Both the position numbers and the translations under genes were made by a program. A DNA stretch of 64,000 bases from Narcine bancroftii (Eukaryota): assembly GCF_036971445.1 (NCBI RefSeq), contig NC_091479.1, forward strand, positions 83,204,001 to 83,268,000, in the 5' to 3' direction. Shown piece by piece: positions 1,451 through 63,428 of this stretch (the first letter of the stretch is position 1; each line of letters opens with the position of its first letter). Under the pieces are notes generated by a model. That model was given only the letters and a program-made list of their open reading frames with translations. It was not told the origin of the DNA and did no database searches.

Positions 1451-3627
1451 AATGACTGCTTAGATTGGTTTCCAGTGCCAAATTCTATGAGCAGTATCCT
1501 TCTCAGGCAGGATTCCTTTCAGTCAATGATGAAGCAAACCCCCAGAGCTGCTTATTCATGATTAATCATCGATGTTTTCATGCTCAATTAGGCTTAATCA
1601 TAACTAAAACTGAAAATAAAGTTGAATCAGAGGAAACTCTGAATGAAGAAGAAAGGACTTGGCAAGAACCATTTCATATCAGCGAACAAGATTATCTGTT
1701 GTGCTGAGAATTTCTATTTCTTCTTACGTGAAGCATCATGAACAGAGTACATAAAAAAAATCATAAACCCTCATTTTTCTCATAAATCAATCTGTACTTT
1801 TACAAATAGAGATATATTTTGTTCACTTAACTCATATGCCTATCTATGCATGTTCATACATTTATTTAAAATATTGTGGATTTTAAAAAAAATACCAACA
1901 AGGAGGTAGAAAAATGCCAAGCAAACTAAAGTGCTATATACTATATGTCTTTCCGTTCAATATAGTTGTTTGCAATTTAGCAGGAAAAGGGCAGTGCTCA
2001 CTTATAGATTTCCAAAAAATCTGTTTCAAAATAACTCTTTGTGGTGTGGAATACCTTTGTCAAAACATCACATTTCTGTTTGGAATATATTCATGGGGGC
2101 CCCTGACATCCAGCTGTAATCTATCCAAACTTAACGAGCAGACAGCAAACCATTGAAGGGAAGAGCACAACTTTAATTAACCTTATAATTATTGAACAGA
2201 ACACTAAATAAAGAGAAATAAATAATGACATGTCATAAACTAACAAACATATAATGTTTGATTGGTTAACAATCAATATGCAGGTGATGTTCACAATGCA
2301 CTGCAATCTTGACTGCACCTTCTCCCACATTTGTTCTGATCATAAGGTGATTCATATCAGTGCCTCTTGGATGTCTCAATTTTTCATTGCTATAATATCT
2401 GATGTGCCTCTCCACTCTGTCGATTTCCCACACTTCAATTTTCATACCCTTCTCCCACCGGAATAAAGAGCGTTCCCCTTGTACTCACATTCCACTCCCA
2501 AGCTCTATTAACTATTCTCAATACTTCCACCACCTTCAATATAACCATTTTCAATAACTTCCTTCCCCCTTCAATATAATTCCACCATCCTATTTTGCCT
2601 CCCCACACTTTCAGCGCAGTTAGCGTGACTCTATGACAGCGGTTCAAATCTGGTGCTATCTGTAAAAAGTTTGTTTGTTAAGTTCTCCCCTTGACCTACA
2701 TGGGTGCTCTGGTTTTCTCCCAAAACTACAGTGCTGTAGGTTGATTGGGTGTAATTGGGCAACATGGGTTTCAATGGCCAGAATTAACTTCTACTGTGTT
2801 TTAAGTCGAATTTTTATTAAAAAACTAAATGAGCATATTCCGAAGGAACTGCTCACTCCACAATACTCTTGAGCACTTCTCTGTTTCTACCAACGCCCTC
2901 AGATTTCTTGCAGATTTCCATACAACTGTCAGAATCGTTTCCTTCTATTTTGCATAACATCTTCCACACAACTGGACCTCAAATGTCTTCAGATTCCCCA
3001 ACTATCGTGTTTCTCTGCAACAAATGTCAGGGTTGACTAATGTAATGTTTTCTACATACCCAAAGATTACAGCCCATGGGATCTGGTGCAATTTGGCAAG
3101 TTGGATCCAAAACTGGCTTGGGGGTAGGGAGTAGGATGTAGGAGGCAGAGGGTAATGGTGAGGGGATACTTTTGTGATTGAATGCCTGTGCCGGTGTCCA
3201 GTGGTGTTTCACAGAATTAACGGTTAGGAATCTTACCTTTTTAAATCCACGTTGAGAACTTAGATGTGAATGTACGATATATAATTAGAAAGTATCCAGA
3301 TGAGACAAAAATCAGCAGGGCCTGTTGATAGCAAGGAGCATAGTTGACAACTACAGAATTATTGATCAGTAGATAAGATGGGTAGAGCAATGACAGATGG
3401 AATTTAATCCTGGTGTGAGGTGATTACTCTGAAGGGACTATTAATAGTAGGAAGTACAGAGGGACCTTGTGTACATGTCGAAGACTCCTTGAAAATGCAA
3501 GCAAAGACTTTTTCACCCAAAAGTTGGTTGGAATCTGGAATGCACAGCTTGAAGAGGTGACAGGAGCAACTACTCTCATAACATATTGCCAAGACTTAGA
3601 AGACTTATTGTATCAGTATATAAGGGT

Positions 3628-3823
3628 GGGGTGTATGTGGTGTCTAGGTAGGGGTAGCACCTCTGGTAGGAGGGGGGGGGTCTTCCATGCTCTTTTCAGG
3701 CAGCTTGTTCACCTTTGGTCCCCACTGGTGCTCAGCTCTCACCTGGGGCTCCAAGTAGCTGATGCACACGCAGCAGACACACCCTGATAAACCGTCTCAG
3801 CAGATGGGCTAAACAGGTGAGGG
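3628..3823 (+). ncRNA. HDV-like (double-pseudoknot) self-cleaving ribozyme, partly degenerate copy
   Basis: P1 GGGGTGT 3628-3634 / ACACCCT 3779-3785 with G1-U wobble; P2 CTCTCACCTG 3736-3745 / CAGGTGAGGG 3814-3823; P3 GGC followed by L3 TCC...; P4 CCGTCT/AGATGG 3792-3807; J4/2 GCTAA with C3809. Confidence 0.7.
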
Positions 3824-4175
3824 TAGCCGACGGGTCTTCGACCCTTGGTGAGGTAGGGGATCTGTCTATCCTAGCATGTGAAGTCTGGCCCTGGCAGATT
3901 GAGCGGAAGAGACTGATTAATGGTTCAACAGTCAAGAAGGTCAGTCCAGGAGGTATTATGGAATGCCAAGACACTTAGATGTCCTGGTCTTCTACTGCAG
4001 AAAGAGAGGTCTCCAGCCATAACGGTTGTCTGTGCCACTGGATCAAGGTCTCTTCTGCCGAGAGAGTAGGATCACCCCTGTGCAACGGCTGTTCCACTTA
4101 AAACTCCATCACACACAGGTTTATTCTTTTTTATTATTATTGTGTCTTTTTCAACTCAAAGGACTACCAATAACA
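3628..4175 (+). mobile_element. Non-autonomous retroposon (RTE-like 5' UTR/tail) with 5' HDV-like ribozyme
   Basis: TSD atataagggt (3618-3627) / atataaggat (4176-4185); short ACCAATAACA tail; no RT ORF. Confidence 0.7.
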
Positions 4176-4245
4176 ATATAAGGATACTTAATGGTCAGCA
4201 GGGAAAAGATGGGGCAAAGGCCTGTTTTGGTGCCATAAGACTATG

Positions 4246-4510
4246 GCTGTGGTTTTCAAACTGCCCCCCAAACTCACATTCCACCTTAAGCAATCTCTAT
4301 GTTATAAGTGCTCTCTGACTAGTAAGGGATTGCTTAAGGTGGTATGTGGGTGGAAAAAAAAGTTTGAAAACACTGTTTTAATTGTACCTAATTGACTCAT
4401 TATGTGAATGGTTTTGTAACGCCAAAGGAAATGGGTCAATGACAATTTTTCTCAAGCAAAATATTTCATAAACAATTGGGTCTAGAGCAGTGGTTTTCAA
4501 CCTTCTCTAT
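4246..4510. mobile_element. hAT/Charlie-like MITE (palindromic); related copy at 57415-57530
   Basis: Ends gtggttttcaaac ... gtttgaaaacactg; internal inverted arms accttaagcaatc / gattgcttaaggt. Confidence 0.55.
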
Positions 4511-6298: not shown

Positions 6299-26822
<20,524 letters not shown>

Positions 26823-47331: not shown

Positions 47332-49476
47332 CTGTAAAGCAATCGCAGACGAATTACGGTAGCACGCCAAAGTGATCTGAAATGATGCCTGGTTTCTGCA
47401 GTAAACTCAATGACAGTGGCCAACTTCGAGGAAAACGCCCTTTTCATAACCTGATCTTTTATCTGGGTTTAAAGAAAAGTCCCAGATTTGACGTTGACCG
47501 TTTCTCTATTTGACCTGCTGAGAGTTTTCTGTCGCTGTGATGATTTCTAGCATCTGAAAGTTCTTTTGATGGTCATTTATTCTCGGATTTTGCGAGTGGA
47601 GTGGACGGATCCCGGCGACTCGTCGCTCTCGCCTTCAGAGAAGCCTCACTGGGCGGATCATTTTCCAGTCTTCGTGCTGATCACGCTGATGAACAAATCT
47701 GTTGATTTCACTTAGGCGATGTATTAAATTCGTTACACTCTCCAAATGTAATTGATGAAATAACCCTGATGTTTTGTGCCATATTTAGCAGGGCAAGGGG
47801 CATTAGAAATACACCGAAGCGTAATCAATTTATGGAAGAGTTGTTGAGGAATAAATGGGGGCTGGCGCAGATAACCCGCACCAAAAGTTTCACCATTTAC
47901 TTTCAAATGGCATGAATTATAAAATGTGCTATATTTTCTATTCGTTTACATTAACATGGAAAATAGTGGCGGACTTACCTCGTGTCACGTTGAACAGTGT
48001 AAAATCAATCATTCTTCTCATTATGCAACTATCCGGACTTGGACAGTTAAGGTGAAAACAGTTAGAACCGTCCTGACTTTCGGCAAAGCTGAAGACGGCT
48101 GTGTTACATGTGGCTGCAATAAATTGAAAATCAGAACACATTAATTCGAACATTTATTCAATGTGTAGAGATGGGTTTCAAAAAGGGGGTGCCGACCAAG
48201 GGCAGGCAGCAGCAATCTCCAAGGATCCATGCTCTGTTCTCTCTGCAGTCTCGGTGCCACCAAGACTCGCCCCACCAGGTTAAGGAACAGCTGCAAACCC
48301 CCACCATCAGACTCAACAACAAACTCAATCAGGGACTCATTTACTCTTACACATAGTTTTTTTCTCTCTCTATTGCACATGCATTTATTTGTTTACGCTG
48401 CGTATAGTTTTTATTTGCACTACCATTAAGTGGAAATTATCCCTCGCTGCAGGAAACAGGTATTCTGATAATAAATCTGAAATCTGGGAGCAGTGCCTCA
48501 GCGTGATTTCGTGACGGATTGATTGTCTAAGGGCGAGCACGCCAGCGTTCAGTTATCAAGCAGCAGATGAGACTCAAAGGCGTTGCCTTAAATTGGAGAG
48601 AGGGGGATGAATTGGAGCACTGTATATGCAGAACAGTTGAAAAGTACATTCGAGCTTCAGGATCCCCCTGAATAGAAGAAAGAAGCAGTACAGCGTTACC
48701 AGTTGAATGAGAACATGCAGTGGTGAGGGGAAAGGTCGTTCGACACCTGGGCTGAGCTGAGATTGCTGGAACACAACGATCATTGTACTGAACGGGAACT
48801 AGACTCTTATTTCGTGAAACGTAATCTTTAGCCAAAATGACAGTTTTATTGATTCGCCGCTCTGCTTATTCTTTTAGTCAAAACTGCTTCTTGAGTATTT
48901 ATATTTGAGTCATTAAACTTTGAATCAAATCAGACTTCTTGGGCGACAGAATTGCCTGATACAATTTAAGTTGGGACGTTTTTTTACCAGCGGAAAAACT
49001 TGTTTTGCAACCCTGGTGATTAACTGTCTTGAGTTCTATTGAGAGAGTATCTCCTCTCGAGAACCGCCCCTTCATGTTTCCACATCCTCACTTCAGCCAC
49101 AGACGCCGAATAACCACGCGAATGAATAGTAACGATTGTTTAATCGGATTTGAAAGATCAACTAAACATGAAGCTACATCCTGATAGAAAAATCCCGGCG
49201 AGTTGCATCTTGAAGGCTGAGTGACAACGGTTCCTTCAGTCGCCTGACAAACTCACCATTCTCGAGCTGGCAGCAGGTCCTGCTGCAATGCCGAGCAGTC
49301 TTCGCGTGGTAGTAATTGACCAGGTGGGCACCCCTGCTCATGGAAAGTGGAAGGTCTATGAGTACACCAGGAAAATGTCGCAGCCAACAGTTTCTATAAA
49401 ATACTGTCGGCGAACATCGAGGAGAAGATCTCGGCAAGGCAGGAAAGGACACCAGCAGAATAAGCGTGAGGATCAT
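46697..49476 (-). CDS. MANSC4: MANSC domain-containing protein 4, spliced gene with 3 coding exons, 329 aa type I membrane protein
   Basis: Exons 49476-49257, 48113-47979, 47331-46697 join in frame (990 nt). Signal peptide, MANSC/MANEC domain (CSPTVFYRNCWLRHFPG...CSRTCC...CNTAVF...NCFHLNCP...C), S/T/P-rich stalk, TM segment, basic tail. Lies between MRPS35 and KLHL42 as in human. Confidence 0.92.
47979..48113 (-). CDS. MANSC4: MANSC4 second coding exon
   Basis: attgcag|ATCNTAVFSFAESQDGSNCFHLNCPSPDSCIMRRMIDFTLFNVTR|gtaagt; 135 nt, phase 1-1. Confidence 0.92.
48160..48485 (+). mobile_element. Rex/Babar-like 3' tail in MANSC4 intron
   Basis: Reverse-similar to 10000-10400 and 53200-53660; ends aataaatctgaaatctg. 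Confidence 0.65.
49257..49476 (-). CDS. MANSC4: MANSC4 first coding exon
   Basis: ggccATGa; MILTLILLVSFPALPRSSPRCSPTVFYRNCWLRHFPG...CCQLEN; donor G|gtgagt. Confidence 0.9.
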
Positions 49477-51971
49477 GGCCAGAGAGTGATCCTGCGTGAC
49501 CGTGCAGTCTTGTCGTTCTTGCACAAGCTCCTCTCAAGATGAGATGCGACTTCTGCGTCAGAAATGAGCATGTTCGCCATGGCGTGGCTTCAAGATTTTA
49601 ATTACGACAGGAAAAAGTGGGAGGGACCACATTTGCTAATATTGTTGGCAGAATTAATTCTTCATTTTACAGTTGTGGCAGATGAGTCTGTCACATTAAT
49701 CTATGACCTGTGACCGTTCTTTATTCGAACAAACTTTACATGAAAAGTTCAGACTGGAAATGGTTCATAACTGTTAACGTAAATCTGTCTGAAGCCTATC
49801 GATCGTTTTTCTTGGAGCATACCTTTACAAAAAAAATTCGAACAAAAATCAAAGATCAACTGATGTCAAGGAATTGGTGAATTATTCTGCAGCATCAGGT
49901 TTTTCTGCCAGCCCCGTTACTATCATCCTTTATAGAGAGTGAGCTTTGTTGACGTGGTTACAAAGGTACTGCTTCCATATATTATTTCGGTTGTGGGTGA
50001 GGTTGCTAATGTGTACTGAGTTCATGAGGTGTTACGCTAAAACGTACAAAGTCAGATATATTCAGACAAACACTTGAACAAAAATCGGTGAGCTAATAGC
50101 AAATACTTTTAGAGATAATTTCTATACACGTGACTGCATAATCCAGCGAGGCATGCCATTGCTGACAAATGGACACGAATATCCCCCAAATGAATAGTCA
50201 CACCGAATTCACTGGAGAACACGTCGAGCGAGGCTTTCATTGCACCTTTTAAAAAGGGCAAACAATTTGTCAACACTTGGCAAAGCTGAATGAAGGCATT
50301 GTTTTCAATTGGAACCAAATTGCTACATCAGATGTATTTTAATTCTGAACAGATTGCATCCATGAGCTTAAAAAAAAATGCAAGACCTCTTTATACCAAT
50401 GCAACATGAACACGAAGAATTCTATCGGATTCCTACAAGATTCTTTTCCTCGAAGGACACTTTCTTATTTAGAGCGCTGTACCGTGAGTGAAAGCTAATC
50501 TTCTTCTCACTGTTGATTTTTGGTGACTTCAACATATCATAAATATTTCTTTCTATCTGCTTTAAATAGGTTAAGCGATCAACAGCATCTGAGCTGAGAA
50601 TATCATATATGCGTGGTTCATTACTTTGTATAAGGAAAAGCATGTTGAATTTATATCTTGCCAACTGGATTGCATACTGCATGAAAGAAATGTATTTGGA
50701 TGCAATGACTATAAATCATATGTTATAATTCAGAAAAAAAAGTAATTGATATTCTGGCAGCTGAAGCCAAGTATGTTATTCTGGTATACTGTTTCACTAG
50801 ATAAGATATGTGCTGAAGAATAGATCATTGTACACCCACTATTAATAATAAATATTTGCAGCCAAGGTAAATTGGGGACATTTTTTGCTTTAAAAGGTTT
50901 TATGTTTATTTCACATCAAATATTAACAATTAACAAAGATTCTTTTTGGTTCTTTCAACTTGTCCCATTCAGGCGCTGCTGATTTGTATGATCAACTTAT
51001 TTCCCAATAAATAAATTCCCCAGTGGGTAAAAATAGAGGAAAACTCTTATACAGGGATACATATGTATGGGATAGCTACATATGGGGATATTGAAGAAAT
51101 AGTTTAAAATATCCCACTGGCTTCCAGCTCACAGAAAAGGTTAACCAGCAAGGAGACTGCAAAAAGTAGCAATTCCTGTGATTTCTGGTTCACTTGCATC
51201 CTTTTAGGAATTTTGATTTTCTTTTATTTTTAATAAGATTTCTTCACCTAAGCTCACCCAAATGCCTTCTGCAGATTAGTAATGGATTCTTATTCTGTTC
51301 TTTTTATTTCTGGCAGCATATTTCAGTGGTCAATGACTCTGCATTTAGAGGGAGACATTGCATGTTCATGACTGTGTATTTTAAAATCACAATGTGCAAT
51401 TAACATATGCCTTTTTGTTTGCTGGTAGATGAATGTTATGTTTCCATGTTATTATCATGGTTTCAAGATCCAGCCAGCATTAATCACATGGTCTTAATGT
51501 TTTTGCACGGGATCTTATTTCATGGCTACACTACTTGAGCTATGTAACTCTGGAGTAAGCTATGTCTACGTTTCTTAACAGGAAGTCATATCACCTTCAA
51601 CCATTGGAGGAAAATGTGGTGAAATCTTTAGGTGTTCACGTAGATAGAATGAAGAGAGTCTATTCTTAAGGGCTCAGGATTAAGTTGGAATAGTAAGCGG
51701 GCCATACTCAGGGTCAATGCCAGAAGTAAAAAGTGGATAGACACATTGCCACAAAGTGCTAAATGACCACATGGCCATGGCTGAGATCAGTGAACTCTGT
51801 TAAAATCTTTTTGTTAAAATAGCCACATGCTCATCTCAGAGCAATCTACAAACTCATTACTTCTTTGCACCGGTCTTTATTAATGGGGACTCCTTCCTAA
51901 TATGCCTCACCACATTCTCACAACCATATCTCTTTTGCAAGCCTTACAGTTTACACACACTGCCAGAAACT

Positions 51972-55899: not shown

Positions 55900-56273
55900 A
55901 GACAACCTGCACCATCAGTTAGGGCGCCTCTGAAATGGTGAGGGGGTTGAGCAAAGCAACTTGGGCGGTCGGTGATTGGTTGTCGAAAGCGGAAGGAGAA
56001 GTGACGAGTTTGGCAGGAGCTGGGGTGGGGGGGGAAAGGAACGGTATTCGGAGAAGTTTTTTTCGGAAATCCCTCGGAGACGGGACGAGGAGGGAGGCCA
56101 CGCGATTCTGCAGGGAGACGCATCGGAGCACCTCAAATCACTGCAACCCATCCCCTGCTTCAAGTCGGCCCCTTCGTGCAAGGTGGAGACCAACCAGCGC
56201 GTTCATCTGGATTCATGCAACTCAAAGCCGAGGGGAAGAACGATTGCACGGCGGAGCATTCCACCCGGATACC
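55900..56273. promoter_or_regulatory. CpG-rich promoter of KLHL42, possibly shared with the divergent MANSC4
   Basis: GC box GGGCGG 55963-55968, reverse CCAAT (ATTGG) 55975-55979, CRE half-site TGACG near 56002, CpG-rich. Confidence 0.6.
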
Positions 56274-57034
56274 ATGTCCTCCGACCAAATCATTACGATC
56301 TCGATAGAGGACAAGATGTATCAAGTCAGCAAACGCAAGCTCATTGAGAAAAGCGACTACTTCAGAGCTCTTTATGAGTCGGGAATGAAGGAATCCGAAG
56401 AGGATTCGGTTCAGTTGCAGGGCTTGAGTGTTCAGGGTCTGGAGCTCGTCATTAAATTCATTAACACGTCTGAGGTGCATTTTGAGAACGACACTTTGGA
56501 AGATTTGGTGGAAACAGCATCTTTTCTCCAAGTGACTTCCATATTGAAGCTCCTTCTGTCAGAGATCAAGGCGGACAACTGTGTAGAGTTGTATAAACTT
56601 GCTGAAATTTATGGGATCAGTGATCTGATGAGTGGTACTCTCAGGTTTATGGCGGGTCACTATCACCCAATGCTCAGGAGACAAGAATTCAGGCACCTGC
56701 CGAACGCTTTGCGTCTCCAGGTTAAGGAGATGCGTTTTAAGGGCACAGCTGTGTTGCTGGCAGTTGGGGATTTCTTCAGCGCCTCCTTAGACCTGAGTCC
56801 TGATGAGCCATGGTCAATGTTGAGATATGATGAGGATGCCCAGAGGTGGTTTCCCCTGGCAAACAGCCTTCCCCCTGACATAATGAACGTGAGGGATTAT
56901 GGCTCAACGGTGTTAAACAATTACCTTTTTATTGTGGGTGGATACAGGATGACTAGTCAAGAAATTGCAGCGGCACATTGCTACAATCCTTGCAAAAATG
57001 AATGGAATCAGATTTCGCCAATGAATCAGAAAAG
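56274..57034 (+). CDS. KLHL42: KLHL42 exon 1 (BTB, BACK, first kelch repeats)
   Basis: accATGt start; ends ...MNQK-AG|gttctc, phase 2 matching exon 2. Confidence 0.9.
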
Positions 57035-60000
57035 GTTCTCGAATTATATAGATATATTCTCACCTCTTGATAATACCTGTATTTGAAATGCTTTCCCACT
57101 CCATCTCCGCTCAAGAATCACTTTTATGATACTTTGTTTTATATAGCATGCTCAACATTTACATTACTCAATTTTAATATTACCATCCAATAACATTTCT
57201 GAAAATAATTGTGGTATAAAAATGACATTTTTACACATTCTAGTCATCAAGAAGGGTTTATCATTCAAGATGCTTACTACACAGCCCGTTCGTTCTAACC
57301 CTAATGCTAAATACAATACTTACAAAGTTAATTGAAGGAAGTATTTTTAAAGTTATTTAAATTGTTTAAATTTTTTGTGACGACTGTTTGATTTTTTTTA
57401 CTGTTAGTTTAACCCAGTAGTTCTCAACCTTTTCCTTAGATTCTAAGGTATCCTATGCCATATGTGCTCTGTGGTAGTAAGGGATTACTTAAGGTGATAT
57501 GCAAGTAGAAAAAAGATTAAGAACCATTAGTAATCTATTTTTTTAAATTATCCCTCTGCCCTCAACAGAATTTCAGAACATTGAGATAATTTTTGTTTTA
57601 GTGGATTACTTTTTCCATCCTTGTTTTTGCCTCAAATGTACATGAATCTTAATACTTCAGTGTATATAAGAACATTTTAATTTTATTCTAATATGAGCAT
57701 GTATTTTCCAAGTCAAGTATATGCCAGAAATCACAACGCTGGAGAAACTCAGCAGGTCCATCAGCGTACTTTATATAGTATAGAAAAAGATACATCACCA
57801 ATGTTTCGGGCTTGAGCCCTTCATCAAGGTATGAACAAAATGTAGGCAGGTGTCTGAATAAACTGGTGGAGGGAGAGGCGGGGGCACAGGCCCACAGGTA
57901 AGAGGTGGATGAGGGAGGGAGGGCACAACAGCAAGCAGGGGAGGGGGATGGCTCTGTGAATGGAGAAGTAAGGGGGTTGAGAGCTGAAGGAAAGGAGTCA
58001 GGGGATAGGGAAGAGAGGGAGAATAGGGAGTGGGCCTGCAGAAACTGGAGAAGTCCATGTTAATGTCATCCAGTTAGAGAGTGCCCAGATGGGATATTAG
58101 GTGTTGCTCCAATTTTTGGCAATGCATTAGGTCATGGACAGTAATGTCGGCTAAGGAGTGGGTGCAGAATTCAAATGGTTGGCTGCTGTGAGATCTCTGG
58201 CATTGATGTGGACAGAGTCAAGGTGCTCAGCAGAGTAATCTCCCAGTCTGCATCCAGCCTATCTGATGTAGAGAAGGCCACAACAGGAGCATTGGATGCA
58301 GTAGATAACTCCCTCAGAATAACGTGAAGAGTTGATCACTTGGAAGGGCTGTGGCTCCGATTGTTGGTGAGGGAGGAGGTGTGGGTGTGTGTGTGTGACA
58401 CTTCCTGAGGTCACAATGGAAGGTGCCAAGGGGCAGATTAGTGGAAAGTGATGAGTGGATGAGGGAGTCACGGAGGGAGCAGTCCCTTCGAAAGGTGAAG
58501 AGGGAAGGAGAGGGGAAGATGTATCTGGTGGCGGGATCCTGTTGTAGTTGATGGAAATTGCAGAGGATAATGTGGAGGCTGGTAGGGTGGTAGGTGGGGA
58601 CAAGGGGAATCCTGTTTTTGTTGCGTCTGGGGGTAGAGGTGGCCAGGGCAGCTGTGTGGGAAATGGAGGAGATATGGGTAAGGGCTGAGTTGATGGTGGT
58701 TTTTTGAAGAAGGAGGTCATCTTGGGATGATCTGGTCAGGAAGACCTTATCTTAGGAGCAGATGAGGCAGAGGAATTGAGAGAAAGGAATAGAATCTTTT
58801 GAAGGAACTGGGTGTGTAGAAGTGTAGTCAAGGTTGTTGTGGAAGTTGGGATTTGTAAAAAAAAAATTAAAAAGTTGGCCTCCTGAGATGGAAACCGAGA
58901 GATCAAAAGGGGAGAGTGTCGCCAAAGATGGACCAAGTGAATTTGAGGTCAGGGTGAAATTTAGCAGCAAAGTGACTAAACCTGATGTACATGAGGCAGC
59001 ACCAATGTAGTCATCAGTGTAGCAGAGGAAGAGTTGAGGAGCCTTGCCTGTGTAGGCTTGTAGCATAGATTGCTCCAAAAAGCCTACAAAAAGGCAGGCA
59101 AAGCTGGGACCCATGTGGGTACGCATGGCTACACTGATCTAGAGAAAGTGGGATGAGTCAAAGGAGAAGTGAGGGTGAGTACATTCTGCCAGGCCAAGAA
59201 GGGTGGTGGTAGAGGGAGACTAGTTCGGTATGTTAAGAAAGAAATAAAGGGCTTTGAGATCTGTATGGGGGGGGGAAGGGTGGAAGTGTAGGGAGTTTGG
59301 ATGTCCATTAATGAAAATGAGGCAGTCAAATGAGGCTATTTCACCTGCTGAGTTTTTCCAGCATTGTGTTTTTACTTGAATCACTGCATCTGTAGAATTC
59401 CAGTATATCCCAAACAACATTCCAATTCTCTTTGTCTTTTAAACTATTATGACGAGCACATATATTTTAAGCAGAAACCAATTTATTCTCAAGGAATTCC
59501 TTCAGTTTTTCTCCCTCACGTGTACTGGAACCCAAAGGCCTAAAGTTTCAGATAAGAACAAAGGCAACAAGTTATTTTTGGCTGTGGTTTGAAAGTATCT
59601 GGAGTATGGGCACAATGGATATGGGTGTACCAAGATTGGATGGTATACAGCAGACGAACAGTCATCACTGCAGTGGATGTTGAGCAAGGGACTGGACTGA
59701 TCACCCTAAATTATTTTCTAAATTGTCTTTCGTGGCATTTCTCCAGGGTCTTTGTGACAGTTTGGTTTTTTAACAATGTAAAATGTATATTGAACCTGGT
59801 GCGCTTGAGTTTGTTAATGCACAAAAAAGGAAGGGCTCAGGCCCGAAATGTTAGTTAAATATCTTTACCTCCTATCTTCTGGTTATCCATCCCTTAGGTA
59901 TTCATCGCTTGCATAATTTTTCTGTTTCAGATCGAATTTTAAGCTTCTGGCTGTAAGTGGGAAATTGTATGCCGTAGGTGGTCAATCACTTTGCAATGTT

Positions 60001-63000
60001 GAATGCTATAGTCCAGAGCTGGATTGGTGGAGCTTTGTAGCTTCGATGCCAGATCCACTTGTGGAGTTCTCAGCTTGTGAATGCAAAGGGATGATCTATG
60101 TAATAGGTGGATACACCACACGAGGTGAGTTATCACCTTTTTCAGCATAACCTTTGGAAGAGTTCAGCTTTGCTCATCACCACAAATATTCACGAATAAC
60201 TTGCAACTGGCATCATGGTCATGTGAAAACATTGATATAAGTTCTCGTTACAATGTTAAGTTCCTGGTCTTGGTTCCATGTTGTAAACTGGAGATAGGTA
60301 TTTTTGTAGAGATTTAGAAGTTCGATTGTGAGGCATCTGTCTAGGGCTTGCTGGTGCATTAATGTGTAACACCACAGAGATCTTGCAAAGTTTTCTTTTT
60401 AATAACATTGATCCAAAAGGAACATCAGTTTCAACACTGAAACTGTATCAACTTTTCAAGTCTTGGTATTCCTTCAAATCAAAAAGAATATTAGGACAGA
60501 AGTTTTAAATCTACTTTATTTGACTGAAGATGTGCTTATACTAAAAATAATTGGCATGTTCCCAATTATCATAATTGATATTCTGAACTTGTCATTGGGA
60601 GATGATGATCCTAGATCAAACTTTTCTCCCCATTTAATTGAGATGATTTTTTGTAGCAGGATTTTATGTTCCCTACAAATGGGTTAGCAGGCTAAAACAT
60701 TAAGTATTTCAGTTCTTTAAAAATTAACTGTATCACCAAGGCCAAACAAAAAGGCTTCACAAAAGCCATGTCATCTATTGGCTATTGTGGAAGTAGTCCA
60801 ATGGGACTGAACGGATAGCTGTATGAGCAGCCAAGCATGAACATAACGTGCTGAGTAATAGCTGTGATTTTTGTTTGGAATCCATAAGGTTTGTCTCTGT
60901 AATTTTTCAAAATGTTATACCCTAACACCTGATCCAAGTTAGTGATTTTAATAGGGATAATACTGCAAAATCCCCATTATCTGGGGATCAATTATGTTGG
61001 ATATGCAAATTTTCCAGTTGACTGAGACTCACTAATACACCTGCATTAAGAATACACCATTTAAAAAAAAAGACAGTGGAAAATGTAAAGTAATTTGATA
61101 ATAATCATTATTGTATTCTTTAATTATGTGAAGTTCACTTGCAGTAAATTATGTAACTTACAAAATTTAAATTTAAATTCAACCCCCAGTTGCTAGTGCT
61201 GTAGCAGCATTGCACAAACTGCTCTTCTACCGTGCCACCACCATAATTCACCCCCCTCCCCCATCTTTACAGGTAAATCCTTACTAATATACTTAATACT
61301 AATAAAAGTATAGACTCTTACTAAGCAGGGATAGGGAGACACTTTGGGAGAGTTGCCCCAACGGCAAGTGGCATCGATCAGCTCTTCATCCTGGTGTCCA
61401 GGTCAGGCCCTCGGTGCAACCCAACTCTTCTCTGCATAAATGTCCTGGTCAGGCCCTTGGCACAACCTGTGTCACCATGGCAGTGTCGGTGCAACCCAAC
61501 TCACCTCCACACCAGTGTCCCGGTCAGGCCCTGACAACCTGGCTCGCCTCCACACAAATGATGACAGCGAAAATAATGCGTGCCCATTGAGGGGCATTGC
61601 TGATTCAGTGGGGCAAATCTGCACATGTCCAATGAAGTCTCAGCACACCCCCATGGGGTCCATCTTCCCAGTCTTAGTTCTTTGTAATTATTTATTTATT
61701 TCCTCTTTTTTCGGCGCCAGTTGTTTGAGTTTCTAGTTGATTGAATGCTGGATAATGAAGATTTTCCTGTATTACTATTTTGAAGTACACAAGTATTTGA
61801 ATTCTTTTTCTTAACTTTGCAAATTCAGTTCATTCCATGTGGCACTCTGTCCTATTCATGTGATTTGTTTTCCCAAATAGTGGTGAAATTAAGGATTAAC
61901 CTTGTCTTTAAATCTGCATCCCGTCTAGAATTATGAGCTGCTTCAATTCCCATGCTTGCCTCAACTAATAGTACAGTAAAAGCCCCTGGCATGTGGCATC
62001 TATGGGGATTGCAGATGCCGGATATGTGAAATTTCCGGTTGACCGAGACTCACTTTTAAAATGCATAACTAATACAGCTGCTTAAGGATGCAGTGTTTAA
62101 AAGACAAAAGACAGTGTAAAATATAATTTTTTTTAAAAATCAGTATTGTAATCCTTAATTATGTAAAGTTCACATAATTGTGTAATTCCTGCAACGTACA
62201 AAACAATTGGCGCTGTAACAATGTTGCATTAACCGCTATGCTAACCGAGCTGCCGTCATAATTAACACCCCTGCAGTTCCCCCCCCCCCCCCCCCCCCCA
62301 AGTTTACAGATTAAAGCCTTAATACTGATAAAAATAAAGATTCTTCCTAGGCAGGGATAGGGAGACATTTTGGGAAAGTCGCCCAAGTGGCACAGGCCGG
62401 CTCTTCATCCTGGGCACTGCCATTTTATTCAAATGCAACTTTATTGAAACTTCATTCAAGCAGCTGCTGCGGGCAGGGCCCGACTGGGGCGTTCTGCTGG
62501 CTGAATATTTGCTCCCATCTTCACCAAGGAGTTGTGTCTTGGTTTGGAGAAATTTTACTTTTATAATTTTAAACTTTAATTTTTAAAAATTTATTTTTAT
62601 GCATCCTGCCCATTATTTATTTATTTATTTGCTTATTTTTTTGCCAGTTGCTTGAATTCCAGATACCGGGAATTTTTTTTTACTGTATTTCACTTTTGTG
62701 ATGAAAATTTTTGCAGCCATTATTTGGACAATCGTTTCTTGAGTTAGCACATGTAAAACCTAAACTGGAAATTTTTGTATAAAGCTTCTCCAAAACTTGA
62801 CCTCATTCAGTTGCAGTTCTAGTCACTGTTAATAGGATCAACTTTGTCCAATGTGTTCCTGCCCCCTTAAAGTCCATGGGAAATTAAACTGTTAAGCTCT
62901 GCCTTTTAGAAGATAAAACTGTATTGGGAGTGTTGTTTAAAATCTTGTTTATGGATTCGCTTAAAATTACTTTCAATTCCAGAGAGAAACATGAACATAT

Positions 63001-63428
63001 TACGATACTCTCCTACATCAGATGCCTGGACTGTTGTAGAATCCTGTGAGATTCATATTCGTAAACAACAGATGGTTTCAGTGGAAGATACTATTTATCT
63101 TGTGGGTGGCTGCATTCATGAGAAAGGTGGAAGTAAGAAGGGAAGCCATACTGAAGACATGCTCACTGTACAGTCCTATAATGTGAGCACAAGGGAATGG
63201 CTCTGCCTTAAGGAAAACACATCAAAATCTGGCCTAAATTTGACTTCTACATTGCACAATGATGGAATCTACATCATAAACAGAGATATTACAATATCAA
63301 CCAGCCGTGAATATCGTGTGTTCTTGAAATACAATATATTTTCAGATATGTGGGAAGCCATTCGACGTTTTCCACCATTTGGTCAGAACATTTTACTCTG
63401 CTCATTGTATTACCCTGATGTACTTTGA
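56274..63428 (+). CDS. KLHL42: Kelch-like protein 42 (BTB-Kelch CUL3 adaptor), 3 exons, 466 aa
   Basis: Exons 56274-57034, 59931-60124, 62983-63428 in frame (1401 nt). BTB start KRKLIEKSDYFRALYESGMKE; kelch motifs YLFIVGGY, LYAVGGQ, IYVIGGY; C-terminal CLKENTSKSGLNLT and FLKYNIFSD typical of KLHL42. Confidence 0.96.
57728..59402 (-). mobile_element. Penelope-like element (RT plus GIY-YIG endonuclease) with inverted terminal pLTR copy
   Basis: RT motifs MRTHMGPSFACLFVG and YTDDYIG; GIY-YIG-like GVIYCIQCSCCGLLYI; gctggagaaactcagcaggt (about 57739) is inverted as acctgctgagtttttccagc (about 59343). Confidence 0.88.
57797..57830 (-). ncRNA. Minimal type I hammerhead ribozyme motif in the PLE pLTR (variant)
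   Basis: acc-TTGATGA-a-gggc(tcaa)gccc-GAAAC-ATT-ggt; stem I acc/ggt, stem II gggc/gccc. Confidence 0.55.
59931..60124 (+). CDS. KLHL42: KLHL42 exon 2
   Basis: tttcag|(R)SNFKLLAVSGKLYAVGGQ...IYVIGGYTTR|gtgagt; 194 nt. Confidence 0.95.
60963..61769. mobile_element. TA-flanked Tigger-like MITE, copy 1
   Basis: ta|ctgcaaaatccccattatc ... gataatgaagattttcctg|ta; colinear with 61974-62685. Confidence 0.75.
61974..62685. mobile_element. TA-flanked Tigger-like MITE, copy 2
   Basis: ta|cagtaaaa ... ttttactg|ta; shares gagactcac, aattatgt.aagttcac and gcagggatagggagaca blocks with copy 1. Confidence 0.8.
62983..63428 (+). CDS. KLHL42: KLHL42 exon 3
   Basis: ttccag|(E)RNMNILRYSPTSDAW...YPDVL*. Confidence 0.95.

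Follow-up and report, generated by a model that had tools for sequence, protein, structure and literature searches.

The window analysed here, a stretch of 64,000 bp from contig NC_091479.1 of Narcine bancroftii, contains an MRPS35-like gene, a weak match to a MANEC domain and a BTB-Kelch gene, in an order which we take to recall the vertebrate MRPS35-MANSC4-KLHL42 cluster (Table 1). The first exon of the MRPS35-like gene is preceded, at a distance of 1.5 kb or more, by an insert for which the original prediction had proposed a retroposon headed by an HDV-like ribozyme; this position rules out a location inside an intron of the neighbouring gene. The span of the insert between target-site duplications, 3628-4175, was confirmed from the sequence. 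The duplication ATATAAGG is a perfect direct repeat that becomes a 9/10 match on extension by two bases, and the 5' edge of the insert is therefore uncertain by 2 nt. The idea that the insert splits an older CR1 remnant holds for the left flank, where tblastn detects such a remnant, while continuity across the insert reaches only the shuffle-maximum level.

Table 1. Coordinates of the features in the window and of the predicted ribozyme parts in the window copy.
Feature	Position	Strand	Remarks
CR1-like remnant, older, left of insert	3063..3617	+	tblastn E 2e-4 at 3063-3316
Left target-site duplication	3618..3625	+	8 nt perfect; 3618-3627 with one mismatch
Predicted HDV-like ribozyme, decayed	3628..3823	+	G3628 = predicted G1 and family 5' boundary
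P1, 5' strand	3628..3634	+	partner 3779-3785
J1/2, ~100 nt	3635..3735	+	likely a long P1.2 hairpin; base 3638-44 with 3727-33
P2, 5' strand	3736..3745	+	partner 3814-3823, 10 bp
P3, 5' strand	3747..3749	+	partner 3776-3778; A3777 private defect (G-A mismatch)
L3, 26 nt	3750..3775	+	U20/C21/C22 equivalents 3750-52; G25 equivalent 3755; hairpin 3758-62/3770-74
P1.1	3751-52/3786-87	+	C-A mismatch in window copy
P1 3' and P1.1 3' strands	3779..3787	+	A3787 private defect; T3785 CpG decay
P4 hairpin	3792..3807	+	strands 3792-97/3802-07
J4/2	3808..3813	+	C75 equivalent C3809; C in 40/50 copies, 4 gaps
Retained LINE 5' UTR remainder	3824..4122	+	ends one base before the LINE's 5' complementary arm
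T-rich junction linker, 19 nt	4123..4141	+	replaces ~3.4 kb: both arms and whole ORF
Last 34 nt of LINE	4142..4175	+	terminal stem-loop and AAT-type tail
Right target-site duplication	4176..4183	+	perfect match to left copy
MRPS35-like gene	~5680-26807	+	eight exons; start codon near 6299
Weak MANEC-domain match	~49177-49533	-	
BTB-Kelch gene	55923-63428	+	

Directly upstream of the element, the interval 3127-3357 has exact matches in low-depth contigs of two presumed-RNA runs, where nascent RNA and DNA carry-over look alike. A palindromic short repeat of MITE-like appearance, also present at several other loci, lies a short way to the right of the element (4272-4351) and reaches very high depth in presumed-RNA contigs. 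No exact piece spanning the window copy itself was found among the contigs listed from four presumed-RNA runs, a type of data that cannot show transcript starts.

A repeat family and its parent LINE

As had been expected, the window element is one member of a repeat family. Genome-wide searching gave 271 candidates, of which 40 were scored, and all counts are lower bounds; these relatives, at least 40 in number, are 77-83% identical to the window copy. Three DNA searches together yielded 67 distinct loci, 50 of which reach the 5' region, the other 17 being left out as truncated or broken. Among these 50 copies the alignment starts at base 1 in 16, at base 2 in seven and at base 3 in two; another 10 begin at bases 4-5, 12 at bases 6-12 and three further in. 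Half of the copies (25/50) start at the first three bases of the predicted ribozyme, in line with the proposal that 5' ends gather at G3628, and upstream of base 1 the sequences are unrelated, no letter being shared by more than 21 of the 50. A second cleavage site at the repeated GGGGTGT motif (base 10) was considered and rejected: there is no second peak of starts, base 8 being used in 4/50 copies and bases 9 and 10 in 1/50 each. This repeated motif likely closes a hairpin in the modelled J1/2.

Target-site duplications with a score of at least 8 occur in seven of the 24 copies that have both ends, versus 1.8% of mismatched flank pairs. Across the family these duplications end anywhere from 8 nt before to 11 nt after base 1, and their first letter is A in all seven good cases; duplications beginning with A have been reported for animal RTEs (PMC6007223). 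Outside CpG sites and variable columns, the window copy is ~6% diverged from the commonest letters, the family mean being 7.4%.

The partner LINE called for by the original prediction was found in the same genome, with a matching 5' UTR and tail. At both ends its long copies match the window element; they finish in the same ~35 nt and carry broken APE and RT frames, the expected remnants of RTE-type machinery; the longest copy examined measures ~3.9 kb. The closest proteins are single-ORF endonuclease-reverse transcriptases of ~1050-1090 aa, with up to 61% identity; related RTE families of other fishes, turtles and lancelets range over 55-61% at the protein level, and matches to the LINE bear the name craniofacial development protein 2-like, which we take to mark RTE-type endonucleases. 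Judged by its sequence, the parent LINE appears to fit the RTE clade, with a single ORF for APE and RT, a length of ~4 kb and a microsatellite tail. Because the long copies share the 5' and 3' ends, the window copy can be read as the LINE reduced to its bases 1-495 and its final 34 nt, with a T-rich linker of 19 nt between them.

This composition bears directly on the class of the element. An independent SINE that depends on a distinct partner for its movement finds no support: the sequence is made of the LINE's own 5' UTR and 3' end, and the junctions are heterogeneous. The lack of an ORF and of a Pol III promoter, also proposed, was borne out, there being neither a tRNA head nor properly spaced A and B boxes. 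When an RNA-gene head was looked for in the window copy, no tRNA and no Rfam match appeared, and the nearest B-box-like site, at base 209, is mismatched. On these sequence grounds we classify the window element as a bipartite RTE derivative with a predicted HDV-like head, not as a SINE.

Two related elements were seen in passing. Loci L117-L128 (e.g. G000:C15:243696674) represent a second, young RTE-like family, with open frames often longer than 1100 aa, an endonuclease 45% identical to that of the old family, and a 5' UTR consisting of a variable array of GC-rich tandem repeats; none of its 12 loci gave an HDV-like descriptor match. A contig of 2.9 kb from the bin of a bacterial genome, probably animal contamination, codes for an RTE-like protein that shares 49% identity with the query, and at its 3' end has a hairpin resembling the family's terminal stem-loop with a different loop.

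The predicted HDV-like head

Helices P1, P2, P3, P1.1 and P4 and the candidate catalytic C3809 are all present in HDV order at the positions originally named. In the window copy the HDV-like descriptor gives one register only, with G1 at 3628, the U20 equivalent at 3750, the C75 equivalent at 3809 and two defects, and the search returned no register with an L3 of 9 nt or less at up to two defects. The original prediction had missed that L3 is 26 nt long and contains an inserted hairpin. Scanning the two strands of the window (128 kb) gives eight further sites that satisfy the descriptor at two defects, the window copy folds worse than its shuffles (z-score +1.72), and an Rfam search of the window gave no match to an HDV family. 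Taken alone the window copy does not rise above chance, and the case for a ribozyme rests on the family. Because it is decayed, with pairs lost in P3 and P1.1, the window copy is probably inactive according to the modelled fold.

In the alignment of 47 copies, the commonest pair is a standard one at 32 of 32 positions of the HDV fold, versus two broken pairs in the window copy. Pairing cells amount to 81.8%, against 34-46% for slid partners, a control which favours the fold since the structure was derived from the same sequences. At zero, one and two defects the descriptor is passed by 1, 4 and 7 of the 50 copies, and by 0, 0 and 8 of 300 shuffles. The two defects are specific to the window copy and restored in the family, as had been supposed: position 3777 is C in 44/50 copies and position 3787 is G in 40/50. 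The G1-U pair, in contrast, was wrongly taken as a hallmark. G3628 faces a pyrimidine at 3785, namely C in 27/50 copies or T in 19/50, followed at 3786 by G in 28/50 or A in 15/50, and the G1-U pair of the window copy is a CpG-decayed G-C pair.

Covariation in the helices did not materialise, with nine pairs changed on both sides versus 8.7 in shuffles, and RNAalifold predicted no consensus structure from the family copies; copies neutrally decayed from one master cannot show covariation. One natural copy, L023 (G000:C8 near 9544125, minus strand), has zero broken core pairs; folded by energy alone, at a z-score of -0.30, it recovers P2 and P4 together with the hairpin in L3, and shows an extended P3 and a long rod in J1/2. 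Pairs within J1/2 recur across copies as a nested rod having its base on the second GGGTGT-type repeat (mean z -0.37, weak in decayed copies).

The standard L3 of HDV-like ribozymes is 7-8 nt long, and antigenomic HDV also has CUAA in J4/2. In the family described here, the U and G equivalents of L3 are kept (T3750 in 46/50 copies, G3755 in 39/50), and the ~18 extra nt constitute a self-contained hairpin placed after the G25 equivalent. Agreement with the published descriptor (PMC6326823) extends to the pyrimidine facing G1, P1.1, the U and G of L3 and the catalytic C. The C of L3 conserved in that descriptor is an A here, and J4/2 reads C3809-T-A-A in most copies, with a U as second base where the same descriptor has a purine. 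By sequence the head falls outside strict HDV-like membership on L3, and these departures (26 nt, and A for the C fixed in the descriptor) would weigh against ribozyme activity of the modelled head.

HDV-like ribozymes have been reviewed for R2, L1Tc, Baggins and RTE elements (PMC6765202). A close resemblance is with drz-Agam-2-1 (Webb et al. 2016, PMC4908430), which has in common with the predicted window fold a 7-bp P1, a short linker, a long structured J1/2 (P1.2), an extended P2, P3, P1.1, P4 and a C in J4/2; a short linker combined with a P1.2 hairpin and a long P2 makes drz-Agam-2-1 faster (PMC4908430). The RTE ribozymes of Ruminski et al. 2011, as related in PMC6765202 and PMC5786205, likewise possess a 7-bp P1, a long J1/2 (P1.2) and a C in J4/2. 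The window fold differs from the large HDV-like ribozymes by its L3 hairpin of ~18 nt, by an A where the PMC6326823 descriptor requires C, and by CUAA rather than CRRA in J4/2; PMC3774820 contributed nothing further on L3.

Diverged relatives with an HDV-like head were sought more widely. A pattern scan of metagenomes, too loose to discriminate, gave one chance-like descriptor match among 80 loci; viral contigs contained no such relative; genome contigs contained one related element, from which the 5' UTR is missing; and the protein matches within the genome belonged to the same family or to the young RTE family with its different UTR.

Junctions at a predicted stem and the proposed origin of the short copies

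Of 29 loci sampled by means of the mid-UTR of one long copy, and classed by eye, 16 are short and bipartite, seven are long, four stop near a common point without a visible tail, and two are interrupted earlier. Sixty-three copies reach base 470; 17 continue and 46 break. A stretch of 17 nt located ~500 nt into the 5' UTR is complementary to a second stretch whose end lies ~35 nt short of the tail, and by commonest letters these two arms, represented by 15 and 27 copies, pair at 16 of 17 positions (15 Watson-Crick pairs and one G-U pair, with one mismatch). The breaks vary in their exact position, yet 39 of the 46 cluster within -5 to +25 of the 5' arm, which suggests repeated jumps of a reverse transcriptase and not one master SINE. 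Two of the three DNA searches behind this census used the window copy, a bias toward the place where that copy itself breaks; among the 19 breaks mapped in the unbiased set, 13 fall in the same interval. The best partner of the 3' arm along the element is the 5' arm in four of six long copies, the exceptions being one copy without the arm and one in which it is degenerate. A rough hand calculation puts the chance of such a match at ~0.01. The stem was picked out by a scan for short arms alone, and duplex folding of the whole window did not single it out. What the window copy lacks is exactly both arms and all the sequence between them.

Junctions are found at the outer base of the stem, inside it and at its inner base, several of them with short microhomology and many seen only once. 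Twelve copies, including that of the window, break at -5 to 0 of the arm, resume at the same 3' position and carry a T-rich linker (three were read by eye, that of L067 among them); this outer-base class accounts for 4/29 of the unbiased sample. The 12 linkers are 9-27 nt long and strongly different in sequence, their last base being T, A or G in four copies each. On a tree of 61 copies, which is star-like with unsettled bootstrap and low in power, the linker-bearing copies require 11 changes for 11 rows, form no cluster and have no diagnostic column; their similarity is 0.821 to long copies versus 0.823 among themselves. Since the tree is star-like, a single master is compatible with it. Linker sequences (4123-4141 of the window and its equivalents) look like the AAT tail in reverse complement, and the four ending in G would lengthen the terminal hairpin. 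An origin of the linkers as fold-back copies of their own flank found no support (0.19 for own versus 0.18 for permuted flanks, p 0.46, 10 copies).

Loci L008 and L020, 1.5 Mb apart on the same contig (G000:C24), are 90% identical and have small deletions in common, with different flanks and different junctions; their likeness reflects either one source element or gene conversion. Of two flanking patches that look shared between the pair, the one checked is a common repeat. Deletions elsewhere in the LINE occur in eight of 30 3'-anchored copies, which suggests a jump-prone enzyme and tempers the stem as the only cause.

The reading that we favour, and hold to be probable, treats the window element as a copy of an old RTE-like LINE that is missing its interior and carries a predicted HDV-like head; a jump of the reverse transcriptase across a predicted 5'-3' stem likely produced it in a single event. 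The parent LINE would be read within a longer host transcript, and its ribozyme would cut just before G1, leaving the sharp 5' end that is observed. The 17-nt stretch of the 5' UTR, whose complementarity to the 3' stretch is evident, may then pair with it and loop out the ORF. Target-primed reverse transcription from the AAT tail would meet this stem after ~35 nt, and the enzyme may often switch to the 5' side, in some cases with the addition of a T-rich linker. The resulting product, a 5' UTR joined to the 3' end and bounded by a target duplication, is what is seen at the locus, together with later decay of ~6% and the loss of pairs in P3 and P1.1.

A propagating non-autonomous family of the RTE-N or SIDE type, in which one or a few short master elements with an (ATT)n-like linker are moved in trans by the parent LINE and retain the ribozyme for 5' processing, is the closest form of the original idea. 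It would account for the class of 12 copies with a common junction and a T-rich linker, a near-identity which would also be expected from a true subfamily; the short copies retain both elements needed in cis, and families of this kind are already known (PMC5786205, PMC3414825). Against it stand the differing linkers with their mixed last bases, the absence of clustering or of a diagnostic column, the equal age of short and long copies (7.1% versus 7.6%), the 90% identity of L008 and L020 despite their different junctions, and the fact that most other junctions are singletons. The variety of junctions, the differing linkers and the lack of clustering lead us to prefer repeated jumps, and to regard such a family as rather unlikely.

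The bipartite origin could also be right and the head non-cleaving, if the ribozyme was inactivated by the insertion in L3 and the sharp 5' end reflects transcription starting at an internal Pol II promoter, like Pr77 in L1Tc, for which a dual promoter and ribozyme function has been described (PMC3383444). The departure of L3 from the published descriptor and the lack of covariation speak for such a head, but the other core features are intact at the family level, the 5' strand of P1 begins exactly at the first base, and the L3 insertion is a self-contained hairpin located after the G25 equivalent; we consider this version improbable. Deletion at the DNA level after full-length insertion, triggered by the inverted repeat and repaired with filler that is templated or not, appears very improbable: the arms form an inverted repeat in DNA too and several junctions have microhomology, but the arms are only 17 nt long and lie 3.3 kb apart, and the short copies are the majority of 5'-containing copies (16/29) and as old as the long ones. 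Repeated jumps by the LINE's reverse transcriptase thus remain the preferred explanation.

Relation to known elements and significance

Ribozyme-headed, ORF-less LINE derivatives are already known, and the headline of the original prediction is not new in kind. Bipartite RTE derivatives lacking an ORF and keeping the 5' end have been described (PMC5786205, PMC7245038); according to Kojima 2018 (PMC5786205), such derivatives usually retain the LINE 5' end, several RTEs are predicted to bear ribozymes, and few LINE groups yield bipartite derivatives, "for unknown reasons". RTE-N2_Lch, RTESINE1/2, WALLSI3 and Bov-A resemble the window element in joining RTE 5' and 3' ends with no RNA-gene head and no ORF (PMC5786205). 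Relative to these RTE-N-type elements, the window family is a swarm of junctions at a 5'-3' complementary stem and not a demonstrated uniform family. The R2 SIDEs of Drosophila similarly combine an HDV-like head with a LINE 3' end in the absence of a Pol III promoter, and a template jump was proposed as one of their origins (Eickbush and Eickbush 2012, PMC3414825). Those SIDEs form ancient, conserved lineages that insert site-specifically, carry compensatory changes and have had their cleavage tested (PMC3414825), whereas the window family shows dispersed insertion and neutral decay, with cleavage only predicted. NARTc, RIME and SIDER of trypanosomatids are likewise short, non-autonomous and share a ribozyme 5' end with their LINE, but these belong to a different LINE clade and have a compact 77-nt head doubling as a promoter (PMC4035085).

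Of the features described here, the hairpin in L3 and the predicted stem located where deletions concentrate most deserve testing. Our literature search found no HDV-like ribozyme with an L3 hairpin, one of which may already figure in Ruminski et al. 2011, in Webb et al. 2009, in a 2011 review or in figures and supplements, and no stem-driven internal deletion of RTE LINEs. That the parent ribozyme is active despite its L3 hairpin, and that the 17-bp circularising stem turns most 5'-complete insertions into ribozyme-headed mini-elements, is a tentative proposal that we hold to be possible and somewhat doubtful. An L3-hairpin ribozyme, if confirmed, would widen the HDV-like fold and show that a class of ribozymes escapes descriptors with a short fixed L3; Rfam missed the candidate in the window. 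Confirmation of a 5'-3' stem at the deletion hot spot would make the origin of internal deletions in RTEs directly testable. If both an active L3-hairpin ribozyme and an ORF-skipping stem prove true, they would provide a concrete mechanism by which RTE LINEs spawn bipartite elements and SINE bodies.
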